Shown here one piece after another: positions 19,911-57,938 of a stretch of DNA of 64,000 bases. Location of the stretch: the NCBI GenBank assembly GCA_044224405.1, contig JBGAKN010000005.1, positions 15,725-79,724 on the forward strand, read 5' to 3'. The DNA comes from Tagaea sp. Its GTDB lineage: Bacteria > Pseudomonadota > Alphaproteobacteria > CACIAM-22H2. Positions within the stretch are counted from its first letter, which is position 1, and each line of letters begins with the position of its first letter. The notes under the pieces are model-generated. The model searched no databases. It was given only the letters and a program-made list of their open reading frames with translations, and was not told the DNA's origin. The position numbers and the translations under genes were made by a program.

Positions 19911-19947
19911 CGCGAAGACCCCGTGAGGTGTTGGACGTTGTCGGCCG

Positions 19948-28349: not shown

Positions 28350-28378
28350 GATTCTCGTTCCGGTCGGGCGGCCGCTTG

Positions 28379-31737: not shown

Positions 31738-31775
31738 GGACCGCCATTTCAGGACCTCGCGGATGCGCCGGAGAA

Positions 31776-35904: not shown

Positions 35905-36620
35905 CCGCTCCGTTCGCCCGACGCGAGCAACACCTTCTCGACTGCGGCAAAATCGTCTTCGGTGTCGATCGAGACCGCCGGGCCGTGCGCCACGACCGCG
36001 CCGCTGCGCGCGCCCATGATTGCGCCATGCTCAAGAAGGCAGGTGCGCGAGAACGCGTAACTCAATCCGTTCCGGTAATAGACCGGCACGAGCTGCTGGC
36101 GCGCGATGATCTGGCCGCCTTCGGGGTCCCAATAACGGAGACTGCCGCCCTCGCCCACCACGAGCGCCTTCATCGGATGGTACTTGATGTCGGCAGGCGA
36201 CACGGTCCACACCGCATCGAGCCCCTCGTCGACCAGCTTGACGAAGGTCGCTCGGACAAGGTCGGCGGTCCGCAGCGGCGAGGTCGGCTGCAGCATGAGC
36301 ACCACGTCGTACCGTACGCCGTCGATGCGCTCGCATTCGTGCAGCGCATGGCGCAGGACCTCAAGATCGCCGATGCGGTCGCCCGAAAGATGTTCCGGGC
36401 GACGGAACGGCGCCGCCAGCCCCGATGCCTCGGCGACTTTCACGATCTCCTCGTGATCGGTCGACACCACGGCACGATCGATATCGGCGATCGAGCGCAC
36501 CAGATGGCCGACGCGGGCCACGATCGGCACGCCCAGCACGGTACGGAGGTTCTTGAGCTTGACGCCCTTGCTGCCCCCGCGGGCCGGGCATACCGCCAGA
36601 ATGCGCGCGTTCTTGTACAT
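35901..36620 (-). CDS. N-acylneuraminate (nonulosonate) cytidylyltransferase, NeuA/KdsB-like
   Basis: Canonical N-terminus AVCPARGGSKGVKLKNL of CMP-sialic/ulosonic acid synthetases. Confidence 0.75.
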   Translation of the reverse strand: MYKNARILAVCPARGGSKGVKLKNLRTVLGVPIVARVGHLVRSIADIDRAVVSTDHEEIVKVAEASGLAAPFRRPEHLSGDRIGDLEVLRHALHECERIDGVRYDVVLMLQPTSPLRTADLVRATFVKLVDEGLDAVWTVSPADIKYHPMKALVVGEGGSLRYWDPEGGQIIARQQLVPVYYRNGLSYAFSRTCLLEHGAIMGARSGAVVAHGPAVSIDTEDDFAAVEKVLLASGERSG

Positions 36621-38026: not shown

Positions 38027-39562
38027 TCAGAGCTGGTAGCGGCCCCAGTGGTCGACCACGGTCTTCCGCTGCTCGCGCGTCAGCGCCTGGATCGCGGCTT
38101 CCTGATAGACCGAATCGTTGTTGTAGTGGGTCGAGGAAACCTCCTCGACGACCGCGCCGGTCTCGCTCCAGAAACGATGCCACACCCCGGGAAGGACGAG
38201 CTGGGTTTCACCGGCGCGCAGCGTGCGCACGCGCCCGTCGACTTCGACCGTCAGCTCGCCCGAAAGCACCTGGAAGGTCTCTTCCTTGCGCTTGTGAAAA
38301 TGCAGCGGATGGCGCTGACCAGGAAGCTGGATCAGCAGCTTCTTGCAATATTCGCGATTGACGCAGGTGATCAGCGTCGTGCCGACCTCGCGGAACTTCT
38401 CGATGCCGTAATGATGCGAAAATTCGACCTGGAAGCTCGTATCGAGCGCCACCTGGGATTCGGCGAGCATCGCCTTGACGTCGTGGATCGCGTGCTTGAG
38501 GAGCAGCACGCCTCCGTCGGCCGGCCGGCTGGCTGCGGCGACGTCGATCGCGCCGTCGCGCGCGATGGCGCGGGTCACGACGATGCCTTCGCGCCAACTG
38601 CCGCTGTCGAGCTGACTGTCGGCGCACGGCATCGCGAAATAGACCATGTCGCGCGTCAACGGCGTGTCGGCCTTCACGGGAACGCGCGCGAAGACCCCGC
38701 GCCGCAGGCTGACGATCGACGCCGCTTCGACCGCGGTCGCCGGCGGCCGGCTGGCGCCGCCGCATATCGTGCGCGCCTTGCCGTAGGCCGAGAACCATAC
38801 GTCGAGCTGGGCGGGCGTCGACGAATAGGCGTTGAGCTTGATCGTGTCCGTCGTCACGCCGACATGGCGCTCGAACATCCGCGCGCCCTTCGCCACGGCG
38901 ATCGCCACCGGCATCGTGTCGTCGGGATTTTCGTGTGTCGACCAGCCGATCGTCACGCCCGGATAGCGCCGACGCAGCGCGTCGATCTGGTTGAGCTGCA
39001 TGTCGCTGTCAGGCGTCGGGTAGATCGAGACGCAGTGCATCAGCGCGAAACGCGCAGCGCGATTCGAGAAGAAGCTGACGAGATTGTCGATATCGGCGAT
39101 CGTGAGGCCGCCCGTCGAAGCGACGATCGGGAGACCGGCCGTCGTCGCCTTCTCGAGCAGCGGCCAGTCGGCGGCCGAGCAGCTCGCGATCTTCAGTACA
39201 TCGAACCCCATTTCGCGGATGAGGTCGACCGAGGCCTCGTCGAACGGCGTGCACATCGAAATCATTTCCTGCGCGCGAACCTCGTCGAGCAGCGCCTGGA
39301 ACCCGGCGCGATCAAGGCGCGTCGAGAGGAAGCGGCCAACATGCTTGTTGTCGCTCGACGCGCGATGGGCCGAATGGATGAACGTGTCGAGGTCGCGGAA
39401 CTGGAATTTCATAGCGGCGCGCACGCCGTGCTTGCGCGCGGCGGCAGCGCATTCCGAGATGATGCGCCGCCCGTGGGCGACGTCTCCTTGGTGGTTGTTG
39501 GCGACATCCAGGACGAAGAGATCATCGAACAGGAAGCTCGGCTTGATCAGGCTCGGTTGCAT
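38027..39562 (-). CDS. NeuB-family ulosonic acid (phospho)synthase fused to a C-terminal type-II PMI-like cupin
   Basis: NeuB N-terminus FVLDVANNHQGD plus a SAF-like middle region. The C-terminal cupin (HFHKRKEETFQVLSGELTVEVDGRVRTLRAGETQLVLPGVWHRFW...EEVSS) matches the mannose-6-phosphate-isomerase cupin of ManC/AlgA-type enzymes. Confidence 0.6.
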   Translation of the reverse strand: MQPSLIKPSFLFDDLFVLDVANNHQGDVAHGRRIISECAAAARKHGVRAAMKFQFRDLDTFIHSAHRASSDNKHVGRFLSTRLDRAGFQALLDEVRAQEMISMCTPFDEASVDLIREMGFDVLKIASCSAADWPLLEKATTAGLPIVASTGGLTIADIDNLVSFFSNRAARFALMHCVSIYPTPDSDMQLNQIDALRRRYPGVTIGWSTHENPDDTMPVAIAVAKGARMFERHVGVTTDTIKLNAYSSTPAQLDVWFSAYGKARTICGGASRPPATAVEAASIVSLRRGVFARVPVKADTPLTRDMVYFAMPCADSQLDSGSWREGIVVTRAIARDGAIDVAAASRPADGGVLLLKHAIHDVKAMLAESQVALDTSFQVEFSHHYGIEKFREVGTTLITCVNREYCKKLLIQLPGQRHPLHFHKRKEETFQVLSGELTVEVDGRVRTLRAGETQLVLPGVWHRFWSETGAVVEEVSSTHYNNDSVYQEAAIQALTREQRKTVVDHWGRYQL

Positions 39563-39613: not shown

Positions 39614-40708
39614 TCAGCCGGAGATCGCGCCCGGACCGGGCGGGGCCGCGTGGTCGATCCGCACGCGCCGGCCGGTGCGCGCGGATTCGTGCGCTGCCGC
39701 GATCACCAGCATGGTCTCGACGCCGCGAGCGAGCGCGAGCGGCGATTCCTGGGGCTTGCCGCCGGCCAAGGCCGCCTCGATATGCTGGAGTTCGCGGATG
39801 AAGTCGTCCGGCCTGGTCTTGGCAACGTCCTCGGAACCTTCGCGACCCGGCTGGGTCCACCAGCGCACGACATCGAAGCCCGGACGCACGCCGCACGCCC
39901 ATTCGAGCGAGCCGCGCTCGCCCTGGACCCGCGCCCACTTGCGGTGCGGCACGGTCACGACGTCCTGCACCACACGGCCTGCGAGGCCGCCCTCGGTGCG
40001 GAGATTCAGCAGCGCGATGCGGTCGTAATCGACCTTGCCGTCGTTCACGTAGTCGAGCGTCGCCTGGACCTCGACGACGCGTCCGACGCCCGTCACGTGC
40101 GCGAGGAACTGCCAGAAATTGATCGCGTGCGAATGCTCGCCGGTGGCGCCCCCACCGCGCTTCCAGAAGCCCAGATAGCTGTCGTGCGGACCGGCGAGCC
40201 AGGGATGCGCGGCAAAGATGCCACCCCAATGCTCGCGGAATTCGACGTCGATCGTCTGCATGCGGCCAAGATCGCCGCCCGCCAGCCGCTTTTGCGCGAG
40301 CTCCGCGGCAAGTCCCACGACATGATCGTAGCCCACGAACACGGCCGTTCCCTGGGCGCGCGCCTTGTCGACGAGGGCCGCGAGCCCTGCGAGATCGGGC
40401 ATGCACAGCGGCTTCTCTACCTGCAGGGCGCGCGGCTTTTCATCGAGCGCGGCCATCGCGAGGGCAAGATGGTGGTCGGGCGGCGTTCCGACGCAGATCA
40501 GATCGTAGCCGCCTTTGGGGGCTTTGGCCGGTTCGTGCAGGCCGATTGCCGGATCCCATTTGCCGTAGCGGCCGGGATAGAGCGATTCGCGCGTGCGCAC
40601 GAGAGCCGCCGGATCGACGTCGCAGATGTCGACCGACCAACCCAGTCGACGCGAAGCGTTGGCGAGATGATTGCCGATCGAGCCGGCGCCATGGATTTTG
40701 ACGCGCAT
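39614..40708 (-). CDS. Gfo/Idh/MocA-like NAD-binding oxidoreductase
   Basis: N-terminal Rossmann fold RVKIHGAGSIGNH and a conserved EKP (QVEKPLC). Confidence 0.5.
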   Translation of the reverse strand: MRVKIHGAGSIGNHLANASRRLGWSVDICDVDPAALVRTRESLYPGRYGKWDPAIGLHEPAKAPKGGYDLICVGTPPDHHLALAMAALDEKPRALQVEKPLCMPDLAGLAALVDKARAQGTAVFVGYDHVVGLAAELAQKRLAGGDLGRMQTIDVEFREHWGGIFAAHPWLAGPHDSYLGFWKRGGGATGEHSHAINFWQFLAHVTGVGRVVEVQATLDYVNDGKVDYDRIALLNLRTEGGLAGRVVQDVVTVPHRKWARVQGERGSLEWACGVRPGFDVVRWWTQPGREGSEDVAKTRPDDFIRELQHIEAALAGGKPQESPLALARGVETMLVIAAAHESARTGRRVRIDHAAPPGPGAISG

Positions 40709-40889
40709 TTTCCTGGTCGTGAGCTGGTGGAGGGGACGGTTGGCGGGGCCTGGAAAGCTACCGCACAGCGGGTGCAGGCAGAGCCTGCAGGCCGACAGGA
40801 GACGGGCGAGGCAGCCCGCGTTCCGAAGACGTCTGGAGGGACGTTGTTCGTGGCGTGAACATAGAGGGCAAGACCCTCCCGGTCAAGAC

Positions 40890-41030
40890 GCCGCATGCTA
40901 CCGCGACGGCTTTACAAAAATTCATATAATATATTGATAAACAAATAAATAATACGATTTTCCCGCAGCAAACAGGTACGATGTTTTGGGGTATTTAAAT
41001 ACCGTTATTTTGATCGGCATGCGACTCGAC
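40890..41030. promoter_or_regulatory. AT-rich island inside the 404-nt gap that interrupts the minus-strand gene array
   Basis: Contains tttacaaaaattcatataatatattgataaacaaataaataatacgatttt and ggggtatttaaataccgttattttgatc. Several TATAAT/TTGATA-like hexamers occur in a genome that is otherwise about 70% GC. Confidence 0.4.
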
Positions 41031-41112
41031 GAAAGGCACGCCCCCTCTCGTGGATATGCCATTGCCGGCGTGTCCATATCGTGTCGCCAGGGCATGAGAC
41101 GCCTCGCCGAAA

Positions 41113-41802
41113 TCAAGAAATCTCGCGCAGCACCGCAAACGCTTCGGCCGCCCGATAGCCGCATTGAGCCCCTCGGAGAGCGGCGAGCGCTCGGACCGCC
41201 TCGAGCGACCGCGCATGCGGGAACGGCCGCATCTCGGACCGATAGGCTTCGAGCGCCGCGATCTTTGCCGATAGATGCGCTTCGACCGACACCCATCGGT
41301 TCGGAACGAAAGGCGGCGCAAGCGAAGCGGGAACCCATTCGGTGCTCGAGAGCACTTCGAAAGCGTAGATCGCGCGCACCGACGCGCCGGGCAACGGCCG
41401 GCACGCCGTCAAGACGGCTCCTGCGACGACGCGATGGTCGACGTTGAGATCGCCGGGATGATGGGTATAGACGACCGTGGGGCGCAGGCGCGAAACCAGC
41501 TCTTCCACGCTCTTCACGACGTCGAGCAGCGGCACCGTATCCATCCGGTTGTCGGGAAAACCGGCCATGAAAGGTTCCGGCACGCCGAGTGCCGCCGCCG
41601 CAGCGCGCGCATCGGTCTTGAGCCGATCAAGCTCCTGCGAACGCGCGCCGGCATCGCGGCGCATGTCGCGCGACGTGACACCCTCCGCCATGATTGCGAT
41701 ATGCACCGACGCGCCTTCGCTCGCATACCGGGCGAGCGTGGCGCCACAACCGAGAACTTCGTCGTCGGGATGGGCAGCGACTGCGAGGACAACCTCTTTC
41801 AT
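41113..41802 (-). CDS. PIG-L/LmbE-family N-acetyl-sugar deacetylase
   Basis: Motifs AHPDDEVLGCG and a HxxH region are present. Confidence 0.7.
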   Translation of the reverse strand: MKEVVLAVAAHPDDEVLGCGATLARYASEGASVHIAIMAEGVTSRDMRRDAGARSQELDRLKTDARAAAAALGVPEPFMAGFPDNRMDTVPLLDVVKSVEELVSRLRPTVVYTHHPGDLNVDHRVVAGAVLTACRPLPGASVRAIYAFEVLSSTEWVPASLAPPFVPNRWVSVEAHLSAKIAALEAYRSEMRPFPHARSLEAVRALAALRGAQCGYRAAEAFAVLREIS

Positions 41803-43931: not shown

Positions 43932-44025
43932 ATGCGGCCGCTGGAAACGCTGATCAATTTCCGGCTCTCGCTATGCTGCCCAAGTTGTTGGGAAGAAAAA
44001 AGAAACGTCGACAATTCGGCTCGAC

Positions 44026-44040
44026 GTTCACTGAGTGAAC
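44026..44040. promoter_or_regulatory. perfect palindrome GTTCAC-tga-GTGAAC, candidate operator
   Basis: 6-3-6 dyad located 10 nt upstream of the GT9 ATG. The same half-sites recur at 52208-52222. Confidence 0.4.
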
Positions 44041-44049
44041 ATATAGATT

Positions 44050-45099
44050 ATGGAGCTTCCAAGTGTCAAGAACACCGTCAACGACGGCGGCGGGCGAAAG
44101 CGGATGGGACTAGGCGGAAACCTGATGTGGACCGGCGTCATCGCGGTGATGGCCCGCGACCGCCGTCCCCTGATGCTCGTCAAGCAGCCCAAGCTCAGCG
44201 ACCTGCTGACCGGCCGCTTCCACGACGCCGAGGGCGACCTCTCAGGGGACCCGGTTTTCGAAGGCAATCCCCACGTTCGCTTCCTGCCGGCGAAACCGAA
44301 GGCCGCGCTCGCGCGGCGGGTCGACATGCTGTTCCTGGCGGCGCTCGAAAAGTTCGGAGTCCGCCAGATTTGGGAGCGCATGCTGCATCGTCGCGCGCTG
44401 GCCCGGCCGGGGCCGCTCCACGTGTTCGTGGACATGGAGATCCACTCCTACGCGGCCGGCCAGTCCGGTCCGCCCGGACGACGGCGGTTCCATTGGAAAG
44501 CCGGCGGCCATGCCATCGGCACGATGCTTGCCGGCTTTGCACCCGGCCGCGCGCCGGCACCGCCCGAAATGCATCTGTCTGCGTCGGATCGAGCGCGCGC
44601 CGCCGATGTGCTGCGCGCCGCCGGCATCGAGGGCGCGTTCGTCGCAATCGAGCCCGAGACGAATCCCGAATTCTTCGGCGACCTTCGCGCCTGGCCGTTC
44701 GACCGGTGGCAGGCCGTCGTCGACGCGCTCGCCGCCGACGGAGTCCGCGTCGTGCAGCTTGGTCTTGCCAATGCGCGCGCGCTGCGCAACGCCGACGACC
44801 TGCGCGGCCAGACCGACTTCCGCGCCGCCTGCGCCGTGCTCGAACGCGCACGGCTGTTCCTCGGAACCGAAAGCGGCCTCATGCATGCCGCGCGCGCGAT
44901 GCGGACCGACGCCGTCATCGTATGGGGCGGCGTGACGCTGCCCGATTTCGCTGGGTATCAGGATTTCCATGACGTCGTCCATCAACGCGTCGCCTGTGCG
45001 CCCTGCGGCAATCAGGGTTGGTGCGACAACGGGCGCATCTGCATGCTGGAGATACAGGCTGACGCCGTGATCGCGCGCGCGCGCGCGCGCCTCGGGTAA
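44050..45099 (+). CDS. glycosyltransferase family 9 (heptosyltransferase-like)
   Basis: GT9 C-terminal motifs LFLGTESGLMHAARAM and AVIVWGG are present. Confidence 0.65.
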   Translation: MELPSVKNTVNDGGGRKRMGLGGNLMWTGVIAVMARDRRPLMLVKQPKLSDLLTGRFHDAEGDLSGDPVFEGNPHVRFLPAKPKAALARRVDMLFLAALEKFGVRQIWERMLHRRALARPGPLHVFVDMEIHSYAAGQSGPPGRRRFHWKAGGHAIGTMLAGFAPGRAPAPPEMHLSASDRARAADVLRAAGIEGAFVAIEPETNPEFFGDLRAWPFDRWQAVVDALAADGVRVVQLGLANARALRNADDLRGQTDFRAACAVLERARLFLGTESGLMHAARAMRTDAVIVWGGVTLPDFAGYQDFHDVVHQRVACAPCGNQGWCDNGRICMLEIQADAVIARARARLG

Positions 45100-45178: not shown

Positions 45179-46120
45179 GTGCAGTTGAACATTCTCAACG
45201 ACGTCGTTCGCGACGTCGGCCGCATCATTGCAGAGCCGGGTCGTTACGTTGCTCGCCGACGCCATACCCGCGATCTTCCGCCGCCGAAGCTCCATATCGA
45301 TCCGGCGCTCGGCTACCATTTGACCACCGCCGACAAGTTTGCCGGCCTGCCCGCCCTGCTCGACCAGATGCGTGCCCTCGCGCGCACGCGCCTCGCGCAC
45401 CTCGACCGCTCCGCCTTCGACGCAGGCATCGAGAGCAAGTCACTCAAGCCGTTCTACTTCAATCTCATCAGCCGTCAGGATGTGGTCGACAACCCCGGCA
45501 TCATGTCCTTCGCGCTGAATCGCGAGCTGCTTGCGATCCTCGCGGACTATTACGGCATGCTGCCCGAGCTCAGCCATGTCGCGCTTTTCTACTCCGGCTT
45601 CTCGACTCCGTTCGTGCCCGGCGAGACCAAGCCGGTGGGCACGCAGCGCTTCCACTGGGACAATCACGACCGCCGTCACGTCAAGGTGTTCTGCTATCTC
45701 GAGGACGTCACCGAGCGCGACGGGCCGCTCACGCTGCTGCCAGCCGCCAAGGCCTACGAGTTCCGCCAGCGTACGGGACGCGGTCTGCGCACTCGCCCGG
45801 TCAAGGACGACGCGGAGATGTTCGAGCATTTCTCGCCCAAGGACCTCGTGCCGATCGTCGGGCCGGCGGGAACGGTTGCGATTGTCGACACGACGCGCTG
45901 CCTGCACGCCGGAAGCCGCTGCCTCGACGGCGGCGCGCGCAAGACTCTCGTCATCCACTACGCGCTGTTCTCGCAGTACTCGACGACGCGTACGCTCGAC
46001 TTCCAGGATCTCAACGTGGCGACGTCGCCCGAACTCCTGCCCACGTTCGAGGCCAACGCGCTCAACGACCTGATTTTCCGTCTCGCGCCGGAGTACCGGC
46101 CGGACGCGCGCCGGCCTTAA
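45179..46120 (+). CDS. hypothetical protein, possible PhyH-like Fe(II)/2OG oxygenase
   Basis: Motifs HWDNHD ... HAGS are present. It is the only recognisable ORF among the alternative frames here. Confidence 0.35.
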   Translation: MQLNILNDVVRDVGRIIAEPGRYVARRRHTRDLPPPKLHIDPALGYHLTTADKFAGLPALLDQMRALARTRLAHLDRSAFDAGIESKSLKPFYFNLISRQDVVDNPGIMSFALNRELLAILADYYGMLPELSHVALFYSGFSTPFVPGETKPVGTQRFHWDNHDRRHVKVFCYLEDVTERDGPLTLLPAAKAYEFRQRTGRGLRTRPVKDDAEMFEHFSPKDLVPIVGPAGTVAIVDTTRCLHAGSRCLDGGARKTLVIHYALFSQYSTTRTLDFQDLNVATSPELLPTFEANALNDLIFRLAPEYRPDARRP

Positions 46121-46887
46121 TCCGGCTTCCGGGCGATCGCCAGCAGCATGTGCGCGACGGCGGTGCCCGGCACGAACGGCGTCAGCAGTCGGGCCACCGG
46201 CGGCGCGAACCGCCCGAGCCGACGCAGCGCGCGCTGAAGCCCGCTCGTCTTGCCGATCGGCCGGATCGATTCCACCTCGAAGCCGGCCATCGACAGTTCG
46301 CGAGCGAGCTCCCGCCGATTGAGCCGCCATTGGTAGAAGCGGAGATTCTGGCCGGCCGGCTCGGGGCCGGGATAGGCCGTGTCGGAAACGGCATGGCGCA
46401 GATTGTCGAACGGCACGGAGATCGCCAGCCGTCGCCCCGGGCGCAGCATACGCCACGCCTCGCGCAGGCAGGACTGCTGGCCATCCTCGAAATGCTCGAA
46501 CACGCCCCACGAGAAATAGAAATCGATGCTGGAGTCTGGCAGCCCCGTCGCGCGGATATCGCCCACGCGGAACGAAGCGCCGCCAAAGAGACGGTTGAGT
46601 TCGGCGACCGTTTCCTCGGCGATGTCGAGACCGATCGCCTCAAAGCCGCGACGGCGCATATGCTGTGTCCAAGCGCCGAGTCCGCATCCCCCGTCGAGAA
46701 CGCGCGCGCCGGCCGGCAGCGCGTCGAGGACATGCGCGATTCCCCGGTACTCCTCGCAGCGCGTGACGTCGGCGATCGCGTTCTCCGGCCCGCCTTCGCG
46801 CCGCCAAATCGCGGCCCAATGATCGGCGATGAAGCGTGTTTCGTCCCGATCTTCGCCCCGCCGGACGACCATGTGATCCTTGCGCAT
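46117..46887 (-). CDS. class I SAM-dependent methyltransferase
   Basis: Motif VLDGGCGLGAW is present. Confidence 0.6.
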   Translation of the reverse strand: MRKDHMVVRRGEDRDETRFIADHWAAIWRREGGPENAIADVTRCEEYRGIAHVLDALPAGARVLDGGCGLGAWTQHMRRRGFEAIGLDIAEETVAELNRLFGGASFRVGDIRATGLPDSSIDFYFSWGVFEHFEDGQQSCLREAWRMLRPGRRLAISVPFDNLRHAVSDTAYPGPEPAGQNLRFYQWRLNRRELARELSMAGFEVESIRPIGKTSGLQRALRRLGRFAPPVARLLTPFVPGTAVAHMLLAIARKPD

Positions 46888-46889
46888 CC

Positions 46890-47882
46890 CTACCTCCCGC
46901 GAAACCGCCAGCGCACGCGCGCGGCGGCAAGCAATCCTGGCCGTCGGGCCTCGAGACGGCCGGCCCGCCGCATATCGACAAGTTCGCGCGCGAAGGCGTC
47001 ATAGTCGTCGGCGATCGTGCCGATGCTAGGAACGCTTATCCCCGCATGGAACGTCTCGTACTCGCGCGCGACGCATTCCAAAAGGCCGGGGATCTCCGCG
47101 TGATCGGCGAACAGCAGCCCGCCCCCACCCATCAGCTCGGGATGCCCGCCATCGGCGCGCGCCACCGCCGGCAAGCCGATCGTGAGCGCCTCGATCAGGC
47201 TGTTCGAACACGGATCCTTGCGCGACGCCGTAAGAAAGACGTCGTGGGCGCCGAGCTCGGCGGCAAGTCCCGGCGAGTCCATTGGCGCAAGCGAGCGGAT
47301 GGACGCGAAACCGACAGGCGAGTTTCCCACGAATGTCATCTCGAAACGCGCGAAGTCGAGATTGCTGTCGAGCCACGAATAGGCGTCGAATCCCTTGTTC
47401 GGATTCGACGACCAGCTTGTCGCGATGACCCGCACACGTCCGGCCGGCAGCCGCGCCGCTCGGCGCCGGAACACATTCGGGTCGGCCGCATTGCCGATCA
47501 CCGCCTCAGGCCCGCTCGCCGCCCATCCGAGTTCGCGGTTCGCCTCGCGGCACCAGCGTGTCTGGAAAACCGTCGCGTCGGCGATGAGCGCGTTCGCCTC
47601 CATCGCCAACCCGTCGCGCGGATCGTCAGGCCGGTTGTAGAGGCGCATCGGACCATCGACCCGATGGACGAAGACCGCGTCCGGATTCGCCCGGCGCAGC
47701 GTCACGGCGGCAGGTACCTCCTGATAGCTGTTGAACAGCACGACATCGGCGCGCGCGCCGTCCGCCGCGATCTGGCCGCGACGGCCAAGTTCGCGTCCGA
47801 GCGCGCGCAGGAACTGATTGCCGCCGCCCGTCGGCGCGTCGGTCGTCGGAAACGCGATATGAAAGAGCGGTGGCTGACTCAT
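46890..47882 (-). CDS. glycosyltransferase family 4
   Basis: Start MSQPPLFHIAFP..GGGNQF and a C-terminal LIEALTIGLP segment. Confidence 0.55.
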   Translation of the reverse strand: MSQPPLFHIAFPTTDAPTGGGNQFLRALGRELGRRGQIAADGARADVVLFNSYQEVPAAVTLRRANPDAVFVHRVDGPMRLYNRPDDPRDGLAMEANALIADATVFQTRWCREANRELGWAASGPEAVIGNAADPNVFRRRAARLPAGRVRVIATSWSSNPNKGFDAYSWLDSNLDFARFEMTFVGNSPVGFASIRSLAPMDSPGLAAELGAHDVFLTASRKDPCSNSLIEALTIGLPAVARADGGHPELMGGGGLLFADHAEIPGLLECVAREYETFHAGISVPSIGTIADDYDAFARELVDMRRAGRLEARRPGLLAAARVRWRFRGR

Positions 47883-48625
47883 GGGCGGCGCAGCGTCAAC
47901 GCCTGCTGCGTGTGGATCGACCAGGAAGGTCGCCGCCAGAGGAATGGGTTGGCGCCGCGCGAAGCGGCGAGATTGACGGCAAGGCGCATGAGCCGGCCCC
48001 AACGGCTGCCCGAGGTGCGGTAGATCTCGAACCATATCGCGGGATGGGTCGCCCGGCTTGCGGCGACAGGGCCGAAATGTCGCTCGCAGAGCGCGGCGAA
48101 TTCCTCGCCGAACCACTCCTGCACGTGCATGGGATCGAACGGCCGTTCACTCACGCGCAGCGGCGTCGTTACCACCAGCGCGCCGCCGGGACGCACCAGG
48201 CGCCGCGCCTCGGCGAGAAGCCGTTCGGGCTGCCGCACGTGCTCGATGACGTCGGCCGATACGGCGGCGTCGAACGAGCCGTCCACCAGACCGGTCGCGT
48301 AGGCGTCCGAGACTTCGAAATCCCCTTCCCATCCGCGCTCGGCAAAGCAGCGCCGCGCGAGCGCGACGGCGTCCGCGCTGGGATCGATGCCCACGACGCG
48401 CGCGCCGAGCCGGCTGCGGATAAGGCCGGTAAGCGCGCCGTCGCCACAGCCGATGTCGAGAAGTCGCGCGCCCGGCCCCACGCCCGCCGCGCGCAGGCAA
48501 TCGATGGCGAGATCGTAGCGACCCATCGTATAGGCGTTGAGCGAACCCACCGGCCCTTCGATCTCGCGCCAGTGATAGGCACCTTTCTTCGCATACTTGT
48601 CGAAGGCGATTTCGGGCGCGTTCAA
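47879..48625 (-). CDS. class I SAM-dependent methyltransferase
   Basis: Motif LLDIGCGDGAL is present. A TTG start at 48625 overlaps the upstream TGA (TTGA); an alternative ATG start lies at 48526. Confidence 0.55.
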   Translation of the reverse strand: MNAPEIAFDKYAKKGAYHWREIEGPVGSLNAYTMGRYDLAIDCLRAAGVGPGARLLDIGCGDGALTGLIRSRLGARVVGIDPSADAVALARRCFAERGWEGDFEVSDAYATGLVDGSFDAAVSADVIEHVRQPERLLAEARRLVRPGGALVVTTPLRVSERPFDPMHVQEWFGEEFAALCERHFGPVAASRATHPAIWFEIYRTSGSRWGRLMRLAVNLAASRGANPFLWRRPSWSIHTQQALTLRRP

Positions 48626-49755
48626 GCGACTCTCCTGTCCGAACCGGGCATCGGCGTTTCGAGGATCGCGTCGAGCGCGTCGCCCATGCGATCGGAGTTG
48701 AAATGGGTCTCGACCAGCCGACGCGCCGTCCGGCCGACCGCGGCACGCCCTTCGTCGTCGCGAAGCGTCGCACGCACGCGTGCGCCGAGCGCGGCAGGAT
48801 CCTCCGGCGGGACGAGATAGCAGGACTCGCCGTCGCGCAGCCGCCCCCGGTCCCATAATCCTTCGATGTCGGAGATCAGGACCGGCCTGCCGCAAGCCAT
48901 CGCCTGCAGGCAGGCGCTCTGGCCAGATGGCTGGATCGTGGGGCGGATCGGCAGCACGACGAGTGCTGCCCCGCGATAGAGATCGCGGACCTGCTCGTCG
49001 CTCAGCGCACCGGCATGCCAATCGCCGCGCAGATGCTCGACATTGGCCGGGAGCGCCGGAAGCCGATGATTCGTGACGATCCGCAGATTCGGAAGGTCGG
49101 GGCCCCAAGCCGCGATCAAGGTGGACCAGTCGCGCTGGAGATCATTTCCGATTGCCAGAACATATGGCGCGCCGGCCGTCGCGCCGGGTTCCGCCGGCGA
49201 CCAGAAGCGCGCGTCGACGCCGAAAGGTATGTCGCTCACGCCCGGATGCCCCGGAAGACGTGCGCGAAGGAAACCCGCTTCGGCCGTCGACAGGGTGACG
49301 ATTTCGGCATGCCGCAACAGCATGGCGAACAAGGCACGCTGCGGCTGCGGCAGGCTGTCAGCGAGAATTCCCATGGCTATGACGACGACGCGCGCGTCGA
49401 GCCGGCCTGTCGCCTTCAGCGTCGCGAGCGCATAGGCGATTCCCGTCGTCGTCGCGACGACTGTCCCCGCCGCCTCCAGCCGCGCCCGCACGGCACGAGC
49501 GGAGAAATGCGACGCGATGATGCTCGGGAAACCAGGCAGCACGGCTGCGATCGGCGCACGCGCGACTCGCCACGCCCAGCCGCGCGCCGCGCCGACGCTT
49601 TGCGCGCCGGCCAGTCGGGCGACGTCGTCGGCATCGAGCACATCGACATGGCGGCCGAGCCGCGCGAGTCGCGCGGCACCGTAGAAGAATTCGTCTGGCC
49701 CCGCCGGACGCTCGGGCGTCCCGCGCCGGCCGGACTTGTAGAGGAAGAGCGTCAT
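48622..49755 (-). CDS. glycosyltransferase family 4 / GT-B
   Basis: C-terminal GT-B EX7E-like region (SGQSACLQAMACGRPVLISD). Confidence 0.55.
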   Translation of the reverse strand: MTLFLYKSGRRGTPERPAGPDEFFYGAARLARLGRHVDVLDADDVARLAGAQSVGAARGWAWRVARAPIAAVLPGFPSIIASHFSARAVRARLEAAGTVVATTTGIAYALATLKATGRLDARVVVIAMGILADSLPQPQRALFAMLLRHAEIVTLSTAEAGFLRARLPGHPGVSDIPFGVDARFWSPAEPGATAGAPYVLAIGNDLQRDWSTLIAAWGPDLPNLRIVTNHRLPALPANVEHLRGDWHAGALSDEQVRDLYRGAALVVLPIRPTIQPSGQSACLQAMACGRPVLISDIEGLWDRGRLRDGESCYLVPPEDPAALGARVRATLRDDEGRAAVGRTARRLVETHFNSDRMGDALDAILETPMPGSDRRVA

Positions 49756-49782
49756 CTCCTCACTGCGGCCGTCAGGCCTCTC

Positions 49783-50928
49783 CTAGCCGGCGAGGGCCGC
49801 GCGCAGCGCGCCCGCAACCCGGTCGATTTCGGCGTCCTCGAGATAAGCGTGCATCGGCAGGCTCAGCACTTCCTGCGACAGCCGATCGCTGACGGGCAAG
49901 CCGTTTCCCGCGACCGGATAGTGCGCGTACGCCGTCTGCCGGTGCATCGGCCGCATGTAATAGATCGCTGTCGGGATTCCCGCCTTCTTCAACGTCTCGA
50001 CGGCATGCGCGCGGCGTTCGGATGCAACGCGTACCGTGTACTGCGCCCAGGTCGATACACAGCCTTCGGCGACCTTCGGCACGACGCAGCAATCACCGAG
50101 GGCTGCGCCATAACGCGCCGCAACGCGCTGGCGCATGACGATCTCGTCCTCGAATATCGCGAGCTTGTGCAACAGAACGGCGGCCTGCAGGGTGTCGAGG
50201 CGCCCGTTCATGCCGATGCGGACATTGTCGTATTTGTCCTCACCTTGGCCGTGGACACGAATGCTTTCGAGCACCGCACGCTGTTCGGCATCGTGGATGA
50301 AGATCGCGCCGCCATCCCCGTAGCAGCCGAGCGGCTTGGCCGGGAAGAAGCTCGTTGCCGCGAAGTCGCCCAATCCACCCACGCGACGGCCCTTGTAGGT
50401 ACCGCCGAAGCCCTGCGCGCAATCCGCCAGCAGCCACATCGAATTGGCCCGCGTAATCGGCAGAAGCGCATCGTAATCGACCGGATGCCCGAAAAGATCG
50501 ACGGAGATCACGCCTACCGGACGCAGACCGAGCTTGCGCGCGGTGGCGATGCCCGCCTCCAGCGAGGTCGGGCTCATGCAAAAAGATGCTTCATCTACAT
50601 CGACGAAAACGGGCGTGGCGTTCAGCCATGCGGCGACTTCGCCTGTCGCAGCGAAGGTGAAGGAAGGAACCAGCACCGCGTCGCCCGGCCCGATCCCCTT
50701 CATCATCAGGAGCATGCCAAGCGCATCGGTGCCATTCGCACAGGCAAGCGCGTGGGGCGCCCCGCAGAATGCCGCGAGCTTCGACTCGAGTTCGCCCACT
50801 TCCCTGCCGAGGATATACTGGCCCGACCGCACAACATCGATGATCGACTTCTCGAGCGCGGCTCCAAGCCTTGCGCGCTGCCGGTGCAGGTCGATGAACG
50901 GCATCGGTCCGTTCGAGATTGCGTTCAT
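49783..50928 (-). CDS. DegT/DnrJ/EryC1/StrS-family sugar aminotransferase
   Basis: Family similarity. The PLP Lys region is SFFPAKPLG. Confidence 0.7.
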   Translation of the reverse strand: MNAISNGPMPFIDLHRQRARLGAALEKSIIDVVRSGQYILGREVGELESKLAAFCGAPHALACANGTDALGMLLMMKGIGPGDAVLVPSFTFAATGEVAAWLNATPVFVDVDEASFCMSPTSLEAGIATARKLGLRPVGVISVDLFGHPVDYDALLPITRANSMWLLADCAQGFGGTYKGRRVGGLGDFAATSFFPAKPLGCYGDGGAIFIHDAEQRAVLESIRVHGQGEDKYDNVRIGMNGRLDTLQAAVLLHKLAIFEDEIVMRQRVAARYGAALGDCCVVPKVAEGCVSTWAQYTVRVASERRAHAVETLKKAGIPTAIYYMRPMHRQTAYAHYPVAGNGLPVSDRLSQEVLSLPMHAYLEDAEIDRVAGALRAALAG

Positions 50929-50967: not shown

Positions 50968-51468
50968 TCAGGCGGGAACGACAGTGTCACGAGGCAGGCG
51001 CATTCGGACTTCGCGGCCCAGCAGTTCGAGAAGCAGGACGACGCGCTCGCCGTCGGCGGCCGACTGAAGACGGCCAACGAGATCGGCGAACGGTCCCTTC
51101 AGGATGCGGACCGGGTCGCCGATGCGCGCGCCCGAAAGCTGGTCAGTCGCATCGAAGGCGCGTCCGGACTCGCCCGCGCGGATTTCCTCGATCACGCCCT
51201 CGGGCAGGGGCGTCGGCACGTCACCGTTGCGCACCAGGTCGCACACGCCGAAAGTCGACAGGATCGGGCGCCAGCGCGTGAACATGGTATCGAGCGCGAC
51301 GAACAGGTAACGCGGGAAAAGCGGGCGCTCGACGACGTCTGTCTTGCGCGCGTGCGTGCGGCGCCGACGGTAGCGCGGAAGATAGACTTCGTACCCCTGG
51401 CGCAGCAGATTCGCGCGCGCGCGTGATTCCCCGTTGGGCTGGGTATAGACGACGTACCAGCCGCTCAC
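50968..51468 (-). CDS. NusG-family transcription antiterminator paralog (RfaH/UpxY-like)
   Basis: NGN domain (WYVVYTQPNGESRA..L...GYEVYLP) and a C-terminal KOW motif (GDPVRILKGPFADLVGRL). Confidence 0.65.
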   Translation of the reverse strand: MSGWYVVYTQPNGESRARANLLRQGYEVYLPRYRRRRTHARKTDVVERPLFPRYLFVALDTMFTRWRPILSTFGVCDLVRNGDVPTPLPEGVIEEIRAGESGRAFDATDQLSGARIGDPVRILKGPFADLVGRLQSAADGERVVLLLELLGREVRMRLPRDTVVPA

Positions 51469-52133
51469 GTGATTTCCGCCGCGCGGCGCGCGGCCCTCTG
51501 GCCCAGACGGAGAAGCGCCGGCGCCACGATGTCGGCCGGATCGAAGCCCAGGCGCGTGGCCGACGACAGCGCGGCTTCATAGACGCCCAGCGGATCGCGC
51601 ATGTCGCAAACGGCGAGCGCGTCGGCATGGCCGGCGAACCCATCCGCGTCGACGGCCACGGGCAACCCCAGGAAGCCTTCGCCCGCGCGAGCCGCATCGA
51701 CGATGCCGACGACTTCTATACCCACCTCGCGTGCGGACAGCGTGGCCGCTTCCGATAGCTCGGAAACGCCGAGCAGGACGACGCGGCTGCGCCCCCCGGC
51801 ACGCAGCGTCTGGAAAAGCGTGCTGTACTGGCTGCGCGCGTCGCGAAACAGGTCGAAAGAAAAGCGCAGGTACTCGACGGTCAGTCGGCTTTTTTCAGCG
51901 AATCCCGACGGCGTCAGGTAGTAGGCATACCTGTTAAGCGGTGCGGTCGAGATCTTGATCAGCCCTTTGCGCACGCAGCGCCGCAGCACCGCGTTAGCGA
52001 GGCCGAGCGCGATGCCGAGCTGACTCGACAGGCCGCGCTGGGTGACACGCGCATCGCCCTCGACGACGGAAAGTACGTCGAGCAGAAGCGTGGTGTCTTC
52101 CCGGTCGATCTTCGAGCTCTGGACGTCGGCCAT
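51465..52133 (-). CDS. winged-helix transcriptional regulator with a C-terminal CoA-binding/Rossmann-like domain
   Basis: N-terminal wHTH (RVTQRGLSSQLGIALGLANAVLRRCVRKGLI) and C-terminal RVVLLGVSE...GIEVVGIVD resembling the N-terminal domains of WbaP/CapD-type proteins. It overlaps the NusG paralog start by 4 nt. Confidence 0.4.
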   Translation of the reverse strand: MADVQSSKIDREDTTLLLDVLSVVEGDARVTQRGLSSQLGIALGLANAVLRRCVRKGLIKISTAPLNRYAYYLTPSGFAEKSRLTVEYLRFSFDLFRDARSQYSTLFQTLRAGGRSRVVLLGVSELSEAATLSAREVGIEVVGIVDAARAGEGFLGLPVAVDADGFAGHADALAVCDMRDPLGVYEAALSSATRLGFDPADIVAPALLRLGQRAARRAAEIT

Positions 52134-52207
52134 GGGCAGGGTTCGGAAAGTTTCGGAGCGCGGTCCGGCGATTCGAGTTGATTGCATTGTCCCGAATGTT
52201 CTAGCTT

Positions 52208-52222
52208 GTTCACGATGTGAAC
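52208..52222. promoter_or_regulatory. perfect palindrome GTTCAC-gat-GTGAAC, candidate operator in a divergent promoter
   Basis: Lies between the regulator/NusG operon (minus) and asnB (plus). The half-sites are identical to those at 44026-44040. Confidence 0.4.
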
Positions 52223-52308
52223 GTCAACCGTTGTTAGCCTCCGGTTTTTTCTGACATATCAACCCATTATGCTCACCCCTGCGACATCGAACCAGAACCG
52301 GAGCGCCC

Positions 52309-54964: not shown

Positions 54965-56821
54965 CTAGCTCCCACCTGAAGTGCCGCAGTCCGGCGCCGA
55001 CAGACGCAGCGCCCGCACCATACCCGCAAAACCAATCGGCGCGCCGGCAAGTCCGAAATCGCCGGCTGGCGCCCTTCGCTCAAGTTCGACCGATTCGGCG
55101 CGTTCGGCAAATCCCGCCGGTCGCGCGATGCCAAATCCGATCACCGCGACGGAGCGGCCGGCCTCGCCGGCGACATCAATCCGCCAGTCCTGCGGCGCTT
55201 GCGCGTTGCCCACGCCGACACAGATCGGCGCCGCGCATGTCGCCGCGACACGGCGCGCCATCGCCTCGGCTGATGGCCGGTCGGCCTTCTCGATCACGCG
55301 GCCGCCGGTATCGACCGCGGTCCGCGCGATGCAGCGACCGCCAGTGCGCGCGAAATATCCCCCGTCGATCACGCCGGCGCGCCAGAACAAGATATTGCGC
55401 AACGGAACCGCTGCCGGATCGACGATCGCGGCGACCACCGCTTCGACCTCGGGTGCCGCACCCCCGATTGCCGCGCGCACCACGCCGCCCGCCCCCATGA
55501 TACCGGCATCCGGATAGCGGAAGCCGACCACGTCGGTCCCTTCGCGTACCGTCAGAAGCTCACCCGGACCCGGCACCGGAACGCGCCAGACATAGATCCA
55601 GGCGCCGGCAGCCGAGCCGGCGATCCACAGCACGCCGGCCAGACAGGCGATCGCGCGCCGGCCCCGGGCGGCCAACCTGGAGAGTCCGGACGCGAGTAGC
55701 GCGACGCCCGGCGCCAGCAGATAGATCGGATAGCCGATCATCGGCATCGCCTGGCTGCCCGTCGAGGGCCCGGAGAAGAAAAGGAAGATCGCGCCGAATC
55801 CGGCCAGCGCCGAACCGGCCCAGACGACCAGAAGCATTTGGGCACGCAGGTCTGCGCGGAGCGACGACATGCGCAGCGCACCCGCCAGAGCAGCCGGAAC
55901 GGCCGCGAGCACGCCGAGGCCAAAAAGCAGCAAGAGAATCCGCGCGCGATCGACCCACATCCATCCCAGCGCCCCGACCGACGGCGCCTGACCCGGCAAG
56001 CCGACGATGTATTGCGCAAAAGGATATGCGAACAGGACGACGTCGGATGGATGCGTCACGCCGCGCGCGAAGACATAGATATTGATCGCGACGATCCATG
56101 CGCAGCACGCCGCCGGCAGCAGCATCCAGCGCGAGCCGAACATCCGCCGCAGGTCGCCCGGCGCATCGCGGCTGGCGACTGCAATCCCGGCGAGGAGCGC
56201 CGCGATTCCAAATGGCGCCAGCACATCCGACACCAGCAGGTTCCCAAGTGCCGCAGCGAGCAGTGCCGGACCATTGCGCCGTCCTTCGAGCGCGCGCTGG
56301 GCAGCCCAGAGCGCGAAAGCCTGGCCGAAGACGACAGCCACCAGCCACGAAGCACCAAACCCGCGCGACAGTGCGAGCCAAACCGGTGAAGCGCACAGCG
56401 CGAGCCCGCCGAGAACCGACAGGCCTGCCGGAAGGCCGGCGCCGCGCAGCGTGGCCGTGAACGCGAGGGCACCCAGGACATAGAAAAGACCGGCGGACGC
56501 CAGATACGGTCCGACACCGGTGGTGCCGAGTACGCTTTCGGCCAGATCCAGGAAGATCGCCTGCAGCAGTGGCGGTAGTGGGCCGTGAAAATAGAAGGAG
56601 AGATTCGCGAACCAGAACGCCGCCTGCAGGGTTGCCTGCGCAGGGTCGGCAAGGTCCCAGCGCCACGGCGCCAATTCGCGCAGTGCCTCGACCTGGCGCA
56701 GCATGTAGACGTCGTTTTCGGAGGCAAAATGACGGTTGGGGTCGATAGCGAGCGCCAGAACGGCGACCGTCGCGACGACGAAATAGATCCAGATATCCGA
56801 TCGCGGATGCACGACTGGCAT
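54965..56821 (-). CDS. polytopic inner-membrane protein (possible polymerase / ArnT-PMT-like transferase) with a C-terminal soluble domain
   Basis: At least 10 predicted TM helices precede a roughly 200-aa Gly/Ala-rich tail. The start is uncertain, with alternatives at 56842 and 56881. Confidence 0.35.
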   Translation of the reverse strand: MPVVHPRSDIWIYFVVATVAVLALAIDPNRHFASENDVYMLRQVEALRELAPWRWDLADPAQATLQAAFWFANLSFYFHGPLPPLLQAIFLDLAESVLGTTGVGPYLASAGLFYVLGALAFTATLRGAGLPAGLSVLGGLALCASPVWLALSRGFGASWLVAVVFGQAFALWAAQRALEGRRNGPALLAAALGNLLVSDVLAPFGIAALLAGIAVASRDAPGDLRRMFGSRWMLLPAACCAWIVAINIYVFARGVTHPSDVVLFAYPFAQYIVGLPGQAPSVGALGWMWVDRARILLLLFGLGVLAAVPAALAGALRMSSLRADLRAQMLLVVWAGSALAGFGAIFLFFSGPSTGSQAMPMIGYPIYLLAPGVALLASGLSRLAARGRRAIACLAGVLWIAGSAAGAWIYVWRVPVPGPGELLTVREGTDVVGFRYPDAGIMGAGGVVRAAIGGAAPEVEAVVAAIVDPAAVPLRNILFWRAGVIDGGYFARTGGRCIARTAVDTGGRVIEKADRPSAEAMARRVAATCAAPICVGVGNAQAPQDWRIDVAGEAGRSVAVIGFGIARPAGFAERAESVELERRAPAGDFGLAGAPIGFAGMVRALRLSAPDCGTSGGS

Positions 56822-56822
56822 T

Positions 56823-57938
56823 CTAACGCGCGGCAATGCCATGCGGCGATGGAAGCGCCGCGAGCCATCCTGCAACCGCACGGCCGGCGGTCAGATGCCC
56901 GAACCTCGACAGATGGCCGTTGCCTTCGAGCAGACCCTTCTTCGCGTCCCATTGCAGCAGATACAGCGCCTGTCCGGCATCGGGGATCGCTGCAAAGACC
57001 GGTTCGAGATCCAGGAACGGAAATCCGAACTCGGCACTGAGACGTCGCGCGACGGGCGCCGTCGTGGGACGTACGTCTGCGACGATGGAGTCGTAGCTCG
57101 GTATCGAAACGACGGCGACGGGAATGCCGGCGGCGACGGCGGTCTGCGCGAAGGCGCGGAAGTCGCCTTCGTACGCGGCGACGTAGCGCGCGGTTTCGGC
57201 CCCGGAATCCGGGTGAACCAACGCCGCATCGCCTTCACCCCGCCGCAGGTTGATGCCCGACGCTTGCAGCAGTGCTGCCCGCTTGATCGCGGAGGCGATG
57301 TTGTAAAGCGCTGAATTCTGCCAGAGCGCAATGCGCAGGCGCGCGATCCATTCGCTCGGCCCGCCGCCGGCCACGGCGCCGGAAATCCGGGTCGCGTTGC
57401 CGGTCAGCACGCGGCGATAGTCGAAGACATCGTTTTCAAAGACGCCAAGCACGATCAGGTCCGGCTTGAACGGCACCCCCTTGTCGCGCAGCCAGGCAAG
57501 CTCGTCGTAGATCGTGTAGCCGGATACGCCGGCGTTGAAGACTTGAACCAGCTTGGCGTCCGGGCGGCGGCGCAACTCGGACTGGGTCCATGCCGACCAC
57601 GTGTCTTCGCTGGCGACATAGGGACCGAATGTCTGCGAATCGCCGATGACGACAATCTTGCGCGCGCCGTCGATCGGCTCTTCGGCCGTCCGGAATCCCT
57701 GGCTGTTGGTTTCGACGTGATAGGGGCGGCGCCACCAGATGACCCAGTGACCATCCTGGCGCGCGACGAGATCGCTAGGCCCGTCGAAATTGAAACCGTA
57801 GCGCTCGGTTCCGAGCGTATCGCCGGCGTTGTCGGTCGCCGCGGGTGCGCGCCACATCCAAATTCGTGCCGCAGTCTCGGCAAGCAGGATCGTCGCCATG
57901 ACGATGACAGAATAGACGATCAGATCGCGTCGACGCAC
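56823..57938 (-). CDS. membrane-anchored SGNH/GDSL hydrolase (AlgX/AlgJ/PatB-like candidate O-acetyl esterase/transferase)
   Basis: N-terminal TM helix, GDS motif IVVIGDSQTFG and a C-terminal GxxH. The GTG start is preceded by GGAGG. Confidence 0.5.
   Translation of the reverse strand: MRRRDLIVYSVIVMATILLAETAARIWMWRAPAATDNAGDTLGTERYGFNFDGPSDLVARQDGHWVIWWRRPYHVETNSQGFRTAEEPIDGARKIVVIGDSQTFGPYVASEDTWSAWTQSELRRRPDAKLVQVFNAGVSGYTIYDELAWLRDKGVPFKPDLIVLGVFENDVFDYRRVLTGNATRISGAVAGGGPSEWIARLRIALWQNSALYNIASAIKRAALLQASGINLRRGEGDAALVHPDSGAETARYVAAYEGDFRAFAQTAVAAGIPVAVVSIPSYDSIVADVRPTTAPVARRLSAEFGFPFLDLEPVFAAIPDAGQALYLLQWDAKKGLLEGNGHLSRFGHLTAGRAVAGWLAALPSPHGIAAR

Follow-up and report, generated by a model that had tools for sequence, protein, structure and literature searches.

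The closest described counterpart of the system reported here is RfaH of Escherichia coli and Salmonella, a two-domain (NGN plus KOW) paralog of NusG whose ops signal lies on the non-template strand in the 5' leaders of long polysaccharide operons. According to a survey of the family, 18% of rfaH genes are alphaproteobacterial and the non-enterobacterial rfaH clusters adjoin cell-envelope genes, recruitment being known for E. coli RfaH only (Wang et al., 2020, PMC7593976). A second relative, UpxY of Bacteroides, stands at the head of the capsule locus under its control and is accompanied there by another small regulatory gene, upxZ. Here, we analysed a stretch of 64,000 nucleotides from Tagaea sp. 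(GenBank assembly GCA_044224405.1, contig JBGAKN010000005.1, positions 15,725 to 79,724; the whole stretch is called the window and all positions refer to it), which carries an RfaH-type gene directly behind the gene of a winged helix-turn-helix (wHTH) regulator, and an ops element preceded by a hairpin in the leader of a long array of polysaccharide genes. We consider it likely that these parts make up a two-tier control cassette of the surface-polysaccharide locus, conserved across Alphaproteobacteria, in which the regulator would gate initiation and RfaH, at ops, would secure elongation. Full-text literature searches returned no account of ops, of JUMPstart or of such a regulator with its operator in Alphaproteobacteria.

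The likeness to the enterobacterial system lies in the two-domain protein, for which RfaH is the top-scoring model, and in an identical ops core (G2-C9, T11, G12), again on the non-template strand and in the 5' leaders of long polysaccharide operons. The differences are that rfaH is not monocistronic here but follows a dedicated regulator gene with a 4-nucleotide overlap, and that in most relatives it lies about 74 nucleotides upstream of its presumed own ops. With UpxY the locus shares a NusG paralog placed at the head of the controlled genes and accompanied by a second regulatory gene; however, the sequence is much nearer to RfaH (125 against 77 bits), the recruitment element is a canonical ops, and the partner is predicted to be a DNA-binding wHTH protein with a promoter operator rather than a trans-inhibitor of the UpxZ type. 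The MarR_EPS family (TIGR04176) resembles the regulator in its N-terminal winged helix and in its occurrence in exopolysaccharide loci, but its model has 105 positions, whereas the regulator carries an extra Rossmann-like C-domain of about 110 residues. For their RfaH cluster CL4, which may be the clade of the window, Wang et al. (2020, PMC7593976) describe no ops, hairpin or operator.

The gene pair and its probable target are located as follows:

50968-51468, minus strand: gene of the RfaH-type NusG paralog, 166 amino acids, NGN plus KOW (Pfam NusG, TIGR01955 and PDB match to E. coli RfaH)
51465-52133, minus strand: regulator gene, 222 amino acids, with a winged helix (about residues 18-95), a long helix and a Rossmann-like C-domain (about residues 115-210)
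5664-40708, minus strand: array of about 33 co-directional genes, about 35 kb, probable RfaH target (gene map and Pfam)

Both minus-strand open reading frames (ORFs) of the pair have a coding-type GC content at third codon positions (GC3 of 0.79-0.80 by ORF and third-position GC mapping) within a window of about 66% GC. The GTG start of the paralog and the TGA stop of the regulator share four nucleotides (GTGA; junction ...ATC AC[G TGA] GCG...), and the start of the regulator is placed at the ATG at 52133, as in homologous gene calls, the longest ORF reaching 52187. At E≤1e-3, 1624 homologues matched the NusG-family protein and 5087 the regulator. The pair proposed in the initial annotation, a 166-residue NGN plus KOW protein overlapping a wHTH regulator by 4 nucleotides, is thus real, and the further proposal that both are co-transcribed inside a polysaccharide locus is supported.

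The length and the architecture of the 166-residue protein, and the family model that scores highest on it, are those of RfaH. Pfam recognised the NusG/NGN domain (E=1.3e-20) and, among the NCBIfam models, RfaH (TIGR01955) reached 125.5 bits, followed by UpxY (77.2), NusG (55.3) and LoaP (33.9), those of UpxY (NF033644) and LoaP (NF033641) falling below their cut-offs of 100 and 125. The top PDB match was E. coli RfaH (4e-13, against 5e-10 for the best NusG structure), with an alignment that spans residues 1-157, that is the NGN plus KOW region, and runs ungapped through the NGN domain. In an alignment of 29 family sequences (E. coli RfaH numbering), R23, Q24, Y54 and T72 are invariant; among the positions that contact ops, R23 and Q24 are thus kept, K10 is replaced by Q, R or H, position 20 is N or H, and R73 is replaced by F or V. 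The database relatives of the paralog are alphaproteobacterial and labelled 'RfaH' by their sources. The RfaH-type reading of the protein is well supported, in line with the specialised NusG paralog that the initial annotation had foreseen.

The probability that the protein is instead the housekeeping NusG, lodged by chance in a polysaccharide locus, appears negligible. Its NGN plus KOW architecture would suit such a role, but the NusG model TIGR00922 gives 55.3 bits against a cut-off of 135.7, far under the 125.5 bits for RfaH, the neighbours are the wHTH regulator and a DegT aminotransferase, neither secE nor rplK, and the ops element described below co-occurs with the gene family in 70 of 80 loci. 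Wang et al. (2020, PMC7593976) describe an invariant gene neighbourhood of nusG, and a nusG gene that is missing only where the genome is extremely reduced. Hidden Markov model scores and gene context therefore both argue against a housekeeping NusG.

We searched the ops core, GCGGTAGC, over the whole window on both strands (128 kb) and found three matches, two of which fall within the 404-nucleotide leader of the array (40709-41112) on its sense (minus) strand, where about 0.009 would be expected by chance from the match counts of the window. The two sites are the following:

40752-40803, minus strand: hairpin-ops element, with the ops 12-mer TGCGGTAGCTTT at 40754-40765 placed after GCACCCGCTG and a stem-loop (28.4 bits with covariance model R1)
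40894-40905, minus strand: second ops-like 12-mer, CGCGGTAGCATG, which agrees with 9 of 10 specified E. coli ops positions, T11 and G12 included

Hence an ops of the type cognate to RfaH, GGCGGTAGnnTG, is present on the non-template strand of the leader of the target operon, at 40754-40765 and at 40894-40905. The first site is an element of the family type, GCACCCGCTGT-GCGGTAGC, about 87 nucleotides downstream of the array promoter and about 47 nucleotides upstream of the ATG at 40708; its predicted hairpin ends 2 nucleotides before ops, and the core positions G2-C9 match the E. coli consensus. The second copy lacks the CACCCG hairpin box, and R1 aligns the ops part only (14.9 bits); it is located upstream of the -35 box of the array promoter, such that only read-through transcripts from 43931 would reach it, and its function is uncertain. 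Model R1, trained on 67 elements with the 40752-40803 sequence of the window among them, was run over the whole window with filters off and found no site below E=0.01 besides these two. With the loose consensus GGCGGTAGNNT and one mismatch allowed, the window has 12 matches against 12.4 expected, which is no enrichment, so the weight rests on the position and strand of the leader sites and then on their conservation across genomes. We also considered the leader site ops1 as an intrinsic terminator and rejected it for its weak stem and the lack of a T tract.

The initial annotation had reported no ops-like element in the 404-nucleotide leader and had supposed a novel recognition signal; this is refuted by the two GCGGTAGC cores, one of them in an element conserved in 70 of 80 loci, and the supposition of a novel signal fails with it. 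Of the three leaders that it had singled out for comparison across relatives, only 40709-41112 carries ops; those at 43932-44049 and 52134-52308 have none and contain a palindrome instead. Neither an ops remnant nor any other conserved element was found in the 39-nucleotide spacer between rfaH and the DegT gene. Given the position of ops, the long co-directional array, already suspected as the target, seems the probable one.

The relatives examined were 80 genome loci (L005-L084) from Rhodospirillales and Hyphomicrobiales, Bradyrhizobium, Nitrobacter, Afipia, Asaia, Azospirillum, Telmatospirillum and Caenispirillum included, which encode homologues of the paralog with 47-77% identity and were found with an alignment-based scan; a scan of genome contigs using the single protein as query gave no matches. 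The element has a consensus of 24 nucleotides, [T/G]TCACCCGRAnT-GCGGTAGCRTGG, and is always on the sense strand. Of the 80 loci, 70 carry a single copy according to the covariance model, at a median of 74 nucleotides after the rfaH stop (within 200 nucleotides in 62 of 67). Positions that the search did not impose are conserved as well, namely C9 (68/68), T11 (65/68) and G12 (62/68), and all of G2-C9 is kept. In the E. coli ops, G2 and C9 pair in a DNA hairpin and the pause occurs at U11 (PMC11001881). The first genes after the element code for sugar-nucleotide enzymes, an ABC-2 permease, a Wzx-type flippase, polysaccharide exporters and a protein of the PAPS-reductase family (CysD-like). The window, L003/L005 (its closest genome relative) and L006 differ in that the element does not stand behind rfaH but 6-10 kb away, before an operon with GFO/IDH/MocA and NeuB-cupin genes.

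The positions of the element bear on whether the protein could act in the manner of UpxY or LoaP, in cis only on its own operon and through a leader signal other than ops, such that the GCGGTAGC elements of the leader would be irrelevant. The paralog is indeed encoded inside a polysaccharide operon, UpxY is its second-best model, and in most relatives the element belongs to the same transcription unit, just after rfaH. On the other hand, both models score far under their cut-offs (UpxY 77 against 100, LoaP 34 against 125), the co-occurring element agrees with the E. coli ops throughout the core, and no other conserved element lies between rfaH and the DegT gene. The distance of 6-10 kb and the separate promoter in front of the element, as seen in the window and its closest relatives, call for a factor that acts in trans and count against a cis-only one. 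We therefore regard this explanation as very unlikely and retain RfaH recruited at ops.

The CACCCGRA box that precedes ops is the 3' arm of a hairpin, YCGGGTGA-loop-TCACCCGR. At least five of the six CACCCG-box bases are paired in the minimum free energy (MFE) fold of 60 of 67 elements, compared with 34% when the 5' part is shuffled; the mean MFE is -16.8 kcal/mol against -11.9 in shuffled controls, and 76.7% of cells are paired against at most 56% with a slid partner. Exchanges between G-C and A-U pairs occur (CG/UG/UA at one pair, AU/GU/CG/GC at another); the sequence conservation of both arms keeps the covariation modest. The 3' end of the stem is 1-6 nucleotides before ops G2 in 66 of 67 elements, that is 10-15 nucleotides from the expected U11 pause, and the spacing between the arms ranges from 3 to about 17 nucleotides. 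The JUMPstart element of enterobacteria likewise has a stem-loop just before ops, since the consensus of Rfam RF01707 is a 5-bp stem that ends 1 nucleotide before GGCGGUAGCGUG (G1), but the stem is CGGGUGA/UCACCCG here and CUGGU/GCCAG there. As a positive control, the E. coli O-antigen leader matched RF01707 with 60.5 bits; the model gave no match even at E≤10 in 40600-41200 of the window or at the element of locus L029, and no other Rfam family matched the leader or a typical element. The alphaproteobacterial element is thus a counterpart of JUMPstart that the Rfam model misses and whose stem has another sequence.

We give very little credence to the alternative that the hairpin and GCGGTAGC have nothing to do with RfaH and form a structured RNA or a protein-binding DNA site, such as an RNA-processing site, an attenuator or a second operator for the wHTH regulator. 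It could draw on the sequence conservation of both stem arms with their modest covariation, and on the partial resemblance of the arms GGTGA/TCACC to the operator half-sites GTGAAC/GTTCAC. Yet the most conserved part is the unpaired 3' part, which equals the 12-nucleotide E. coli ops including the unimposed C9, T11 and G12, and an arm spacing that varies from 3 to about 17 nucleotides is more readily reconciled with an RNA stem than with the site of a dimer; moreover, the E. coli JUMPstart shares the layout of stem and then ops. The reading as an RfaH recruitment element is therefore kept.

Some loci depart from the usual arrangement. The standard element is absent from three loci of Rhodospirillales (L009, L010 and L011), in which rfaH is followed by an AT-rich spacer, a Flp-pilin-like ORF (MLDLIR...GATAIEYGLIAALVSI) and, about 680 nucleotides downstream, a conserved variant, GGGTTGAACCAYTTCACTGTTCCGGTAGCCAT, with C for G at ops position 2 (L009 about 11165-11202, L010 about 11138-11175, L011 about 11157-11194); these loci may hold a pilus-linked RfaH with an altered ops. 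The order is permuted in L083, where about 4.3 kb separate rfaH from the hairpin-ops behind it (14752-14802), which in turn stands about 90 nucleotides upstream of a regulator homologue (14888-15295).

The partner of rfaH is a regulator of two domains. Its N-terminal part contains an HTH_24 winged helix (E=2e-7), and this wHTH alone aligns with MarR_EPS, residues 17-94 of the 222-residue protein (35-112 in the longest ORF) covering 82 of the 105 model positions with 57 bits, below the cut-off of 88. The AlphaFold2 (AF2) model shows the C-terminal half as a beta-alpha-beta Rossmann-like domain at high confidence (pLDDT >93), and the wHTH part at low confidence. The C-domain has no Pfam match even at E≤10, the CoA_binding type included, and no PDB relative by profile search, and Foldseek returned for it only generic Rossmann and CoA-binding folds at E of about 3e-3. 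Of the earlier description of the regulator, the combination of wHTH and Rossmann-like domain is borne out by HTH_24 and by the AF2 model, but the likeness to WbaP/CapD is not, for there is no match at sequence level and the Foldseek results are generic. A near-invariant acidic residue, D146, at the end of the second strand of the C-domain suggests, together with the fold, a ligand of the nucleotide type.

In 76 of the 80 loci, tblastn places a regulator homologue with both domains immediately in front of the rfaH homologue. In a metagenome, a regulator that is 48% identical is also followed by the gene of a 165-residue NusG protein with a 4-nucleotide overlap; one regulator of 53% identity has no NusG gene beside it, yet lies within a polysaccharide locus.

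We then turn to the DNA in front of these genes, in which the predicted promoters, an inverted repeat and the co-transcribed genes are arranged as follows:

52198-52227, minus strand: putative promoter of the regulator-rfaH operon, TTGACG, 18-nucleotide spacer, TAGAAC, with the exact palindrome GTTCACgatGTGAAC (52208-52222) filling the spacer
46117-50928, minus strand: genes downstream of rfaH and co-transcribed with it, for a DegT aminotransferase, two GT1 glycosyltransferases and a methyltransferase
44026-44040, no strand: second exact copy of the palindrome, GTTCACTGAGTGAAC, in a divergent intergenic region, overlapping the -10 box TATATG at 44040-44045 and the predicted start site
44040-44069, minus strand: putative promoter for 43931->41113, TTGACA (44064-44069), N18, TATATG, hexamers read from the sequence
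40846-40886, minus strand: putative promoter of the long array, picked by a consensus scan, TTGACC (40881-40886), 17-nucleotide spacer, TATGTT (40858-40863)
40846-40860: third copy of the palindrome, GTTCACgccACGAAC, with two mismatches, overlapping the -10 box and the start site of the array promoter

The array promoter is conserved in the closest relative, L003/L005, as TTGACC-N17-TATGTTCACgacGTGAAC. Allowing up to one mismatch, the palindrome GTTCAC-N3-GTGAAC has 97 matches in 1.48 Mb of loci, compared with two in a shuffle, and almost all copies are within about 150 nucleotides upstream of the regulator gene, in about 70 loci of several orders, often in tandem and 23-34 nucleotides apart. 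The geometry before the regulator gene is fixed in nearly all loci, TTGAC[GTTCAC-N3-GTGAAC]-N4-TAnnnn, such that the operator stands between boxes of the -35 and -10 type. Where ops is displaced from rfaH (the window, L005, L006, L059 and L076), an extra palindrome precedes it. Near confinement to the promoter of the regulator is the usual signature of an autoregulated factor, and the palindrome is probably the regulator's own operator; its overlap with core promoter elements suggests repression.

It seems rather unlikely, though less so than the alternatives above, that some other transcription factor, of global reach, recognises the palindrome and that the wHTH protein has another target or role. 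The low confidence of the wHTH part of the AF2 model leaves room for this, as does the fact that binding by the regulator is only predicted; against it stand the near restriction of the palindrome to the DNA shortly before the regulator gene, across some 70 loci of several orders, and the way in which it follows ops where ops is displaced. We thus keep the regulator as the probable binder. The alphaproteobacterial LexA box is a direct repeat, GTTC-N7-GTTC. We considered it as the identity of the palindrome and rejected it, as a direct repeat does not fit the inverted GTTCAC-N3-GTGAAC. Farther upstream in the array leader, the minus strand has at 40910-41010 an AT-rich stretch, within a window of 66% GC, with a perfect 14-nucleotide palindrome, GGTATTTAAATACC, upstream of ops1; the stretch may serve as an additional promoter or be bound by a nucleoid protein, or it may be a scar left by recombination when the 43931-41113 genes were inserted.

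Several observations weigh against a two-tier cassette built on RfaH. The protein scores under the NCBI equivalog cut-offs for RfaH (125.5 against 144.5 bits for TIGR01955 and 87 against 124 for NF006534), and compared with E. coli RfaH three of the five ops-contact residues are replaced in it (K10Q, H20N and R73F). E48, which forms the autoinhibitory salt bridge, is R here, although the equivalent of its partner R138 (R142) is invariant. In the AF2 model the NGN domain is confident, but the C-terminal domain, partly helical, has a pLDDT of 52-76, too low to decide between the alpha and the beta state, and RfaH-like fold switching is thus unproven; mixed predictions of low confidence are common among RfaH homologues encoded beside long operons (2026 preprint, PMC13015549). 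The conserved ops of the window has T and not G at position 12, as does its clade, and its hairpin fits the family model poorly, with 28.4 bits against 40-58 in most loci. No ops precedes the genes that follow rfaH immediately in the window. A factor other than the regulator could bind the palindrome, the case for a ligand of the C-domain is based solely on a generic Rossmann-like fold, and the promoters, the start sites and the pausing are all inferred.

In the mechanism that we propose, the wHTH/Rossmann-like regulator, probably as a dimer, would bind GTTCAC-N3-GTGAAC and act on its own operon (regulator, rfaH, DegT aminotransferase, two glycosyltransferases and methyltransferase), on the 43931->41113 operon and on the long array, most likely by repression, and a nucleotide-type ligand of the C-domain may modulate its binding. 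RNA polymerase that starts at the array promoter would then transcribe the stem-loop followed by ops and pause there; RfaH, loaded at ops, would exclude NusG and Rho and suppress pausing, and through such antitermination about 35 kb with about 33 genes would be transcribed without polarity. A bolder version, which we offer tentatively and would sooner doubt than accept, is that of an obligate, class-wide switch between initiation and elongation, in which a metabolite-sensing repressor, responding to NAD(H), CoA or a nucleotide sugar, would gate the synthesis of RfaH and the promoters in front of ops through one operator, and in which the pause hairpin before ops would lengthen the time window for RfaH loading.

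The locus is a surface-polysaccharide (nonulosonic acid) locus, as the initial annotation had assumed. The array is essentially uninterrupted and covers nonulosonic-acid and amino-sugar synthesis, methyltransferases, an ABC exporter and glycosyltransferases, and among its products are a PseB-like dehydratase, DegT aminotransferases, the halves of a thiamine pyrophosphate (TPP) enzyme and an AMP-ligase with a carrier domain. Upstream of it, 43931->41113 comprises three minus-strand genes, with a GT28/GNAT fusion and a PIG-L deacetylase among them, which precede the 404-nucleotide gap at 40709-41112. Beyond the genes at 46117-50928 there are two convergent plus-strand genes, and an asparagine synthase gene is divergent from the regulator gene.

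Further observations concern what the array may synthesise. It has two NeuB-family genes on the minus strand (38027-39562 and 21169-22221), one of which is fused to a cupin domain, and two genes of the CMP-cytidylyltransferase type (35901-36620 and 12922-13674), which together suggest that the array holds two nonulosonic-acid pathways. Minus-strand genes for an AMP-ligase with a phosphopantetheine carrier domain, for a PhyH-type dioxygenase and for a split TPP enzyme (26571-28586, 25750-26754 and 33379-34520) point to an unusual decoration of sugars with acyl or keto-acid groups. Six large minus-strand ORFs of about 355-640 amino acids, with coding-type GC3, matched no Pfam family at E≤1e-3 (54965-56881, 31776-33374, 30046-31770, 34525-35904, 18765-20000 and 23322-24389); a homologue of the first, of 599 amino acids and also without a Pfam match, is found at the same position in L001 and L002. 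The plus-strand gene of LptD, for lipopolysaccharide (LPS) transport, borders the array at 3438-5663, which fits a role of the locus in LPS or O-antigen synthesis.

The core of ops as a recruitment signal and the layout of a stem followed by ops are already known from the described systems. What is new is the near-obligate wHTH plus Rossmann-like partner, which belongs to an unstudied family and has an operator of sharp definition, the position that ops usually takes just after rfaH, and the distinct JUMPstart-like stem. The ops core is unchanged in Alphaproteobacteria despite several altered contact residues in RfaH, which amounts to a natural experiment on how ops is read. The analysis provides exact candidates for the regulator, the operator and the ops sites in many genomes, those of plant symbionts and nitrifiers included, and so makes the regulation of O-antigen, capsule and exopolysaccharide in these bacteria directly testable. 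If the bolder version were true, a single cassette would give a double licence to the surface-polysaccharide operons of Rhodospirillales and Hyphomicrobiales, Bradyrhizobium and Nitrobacter among them.

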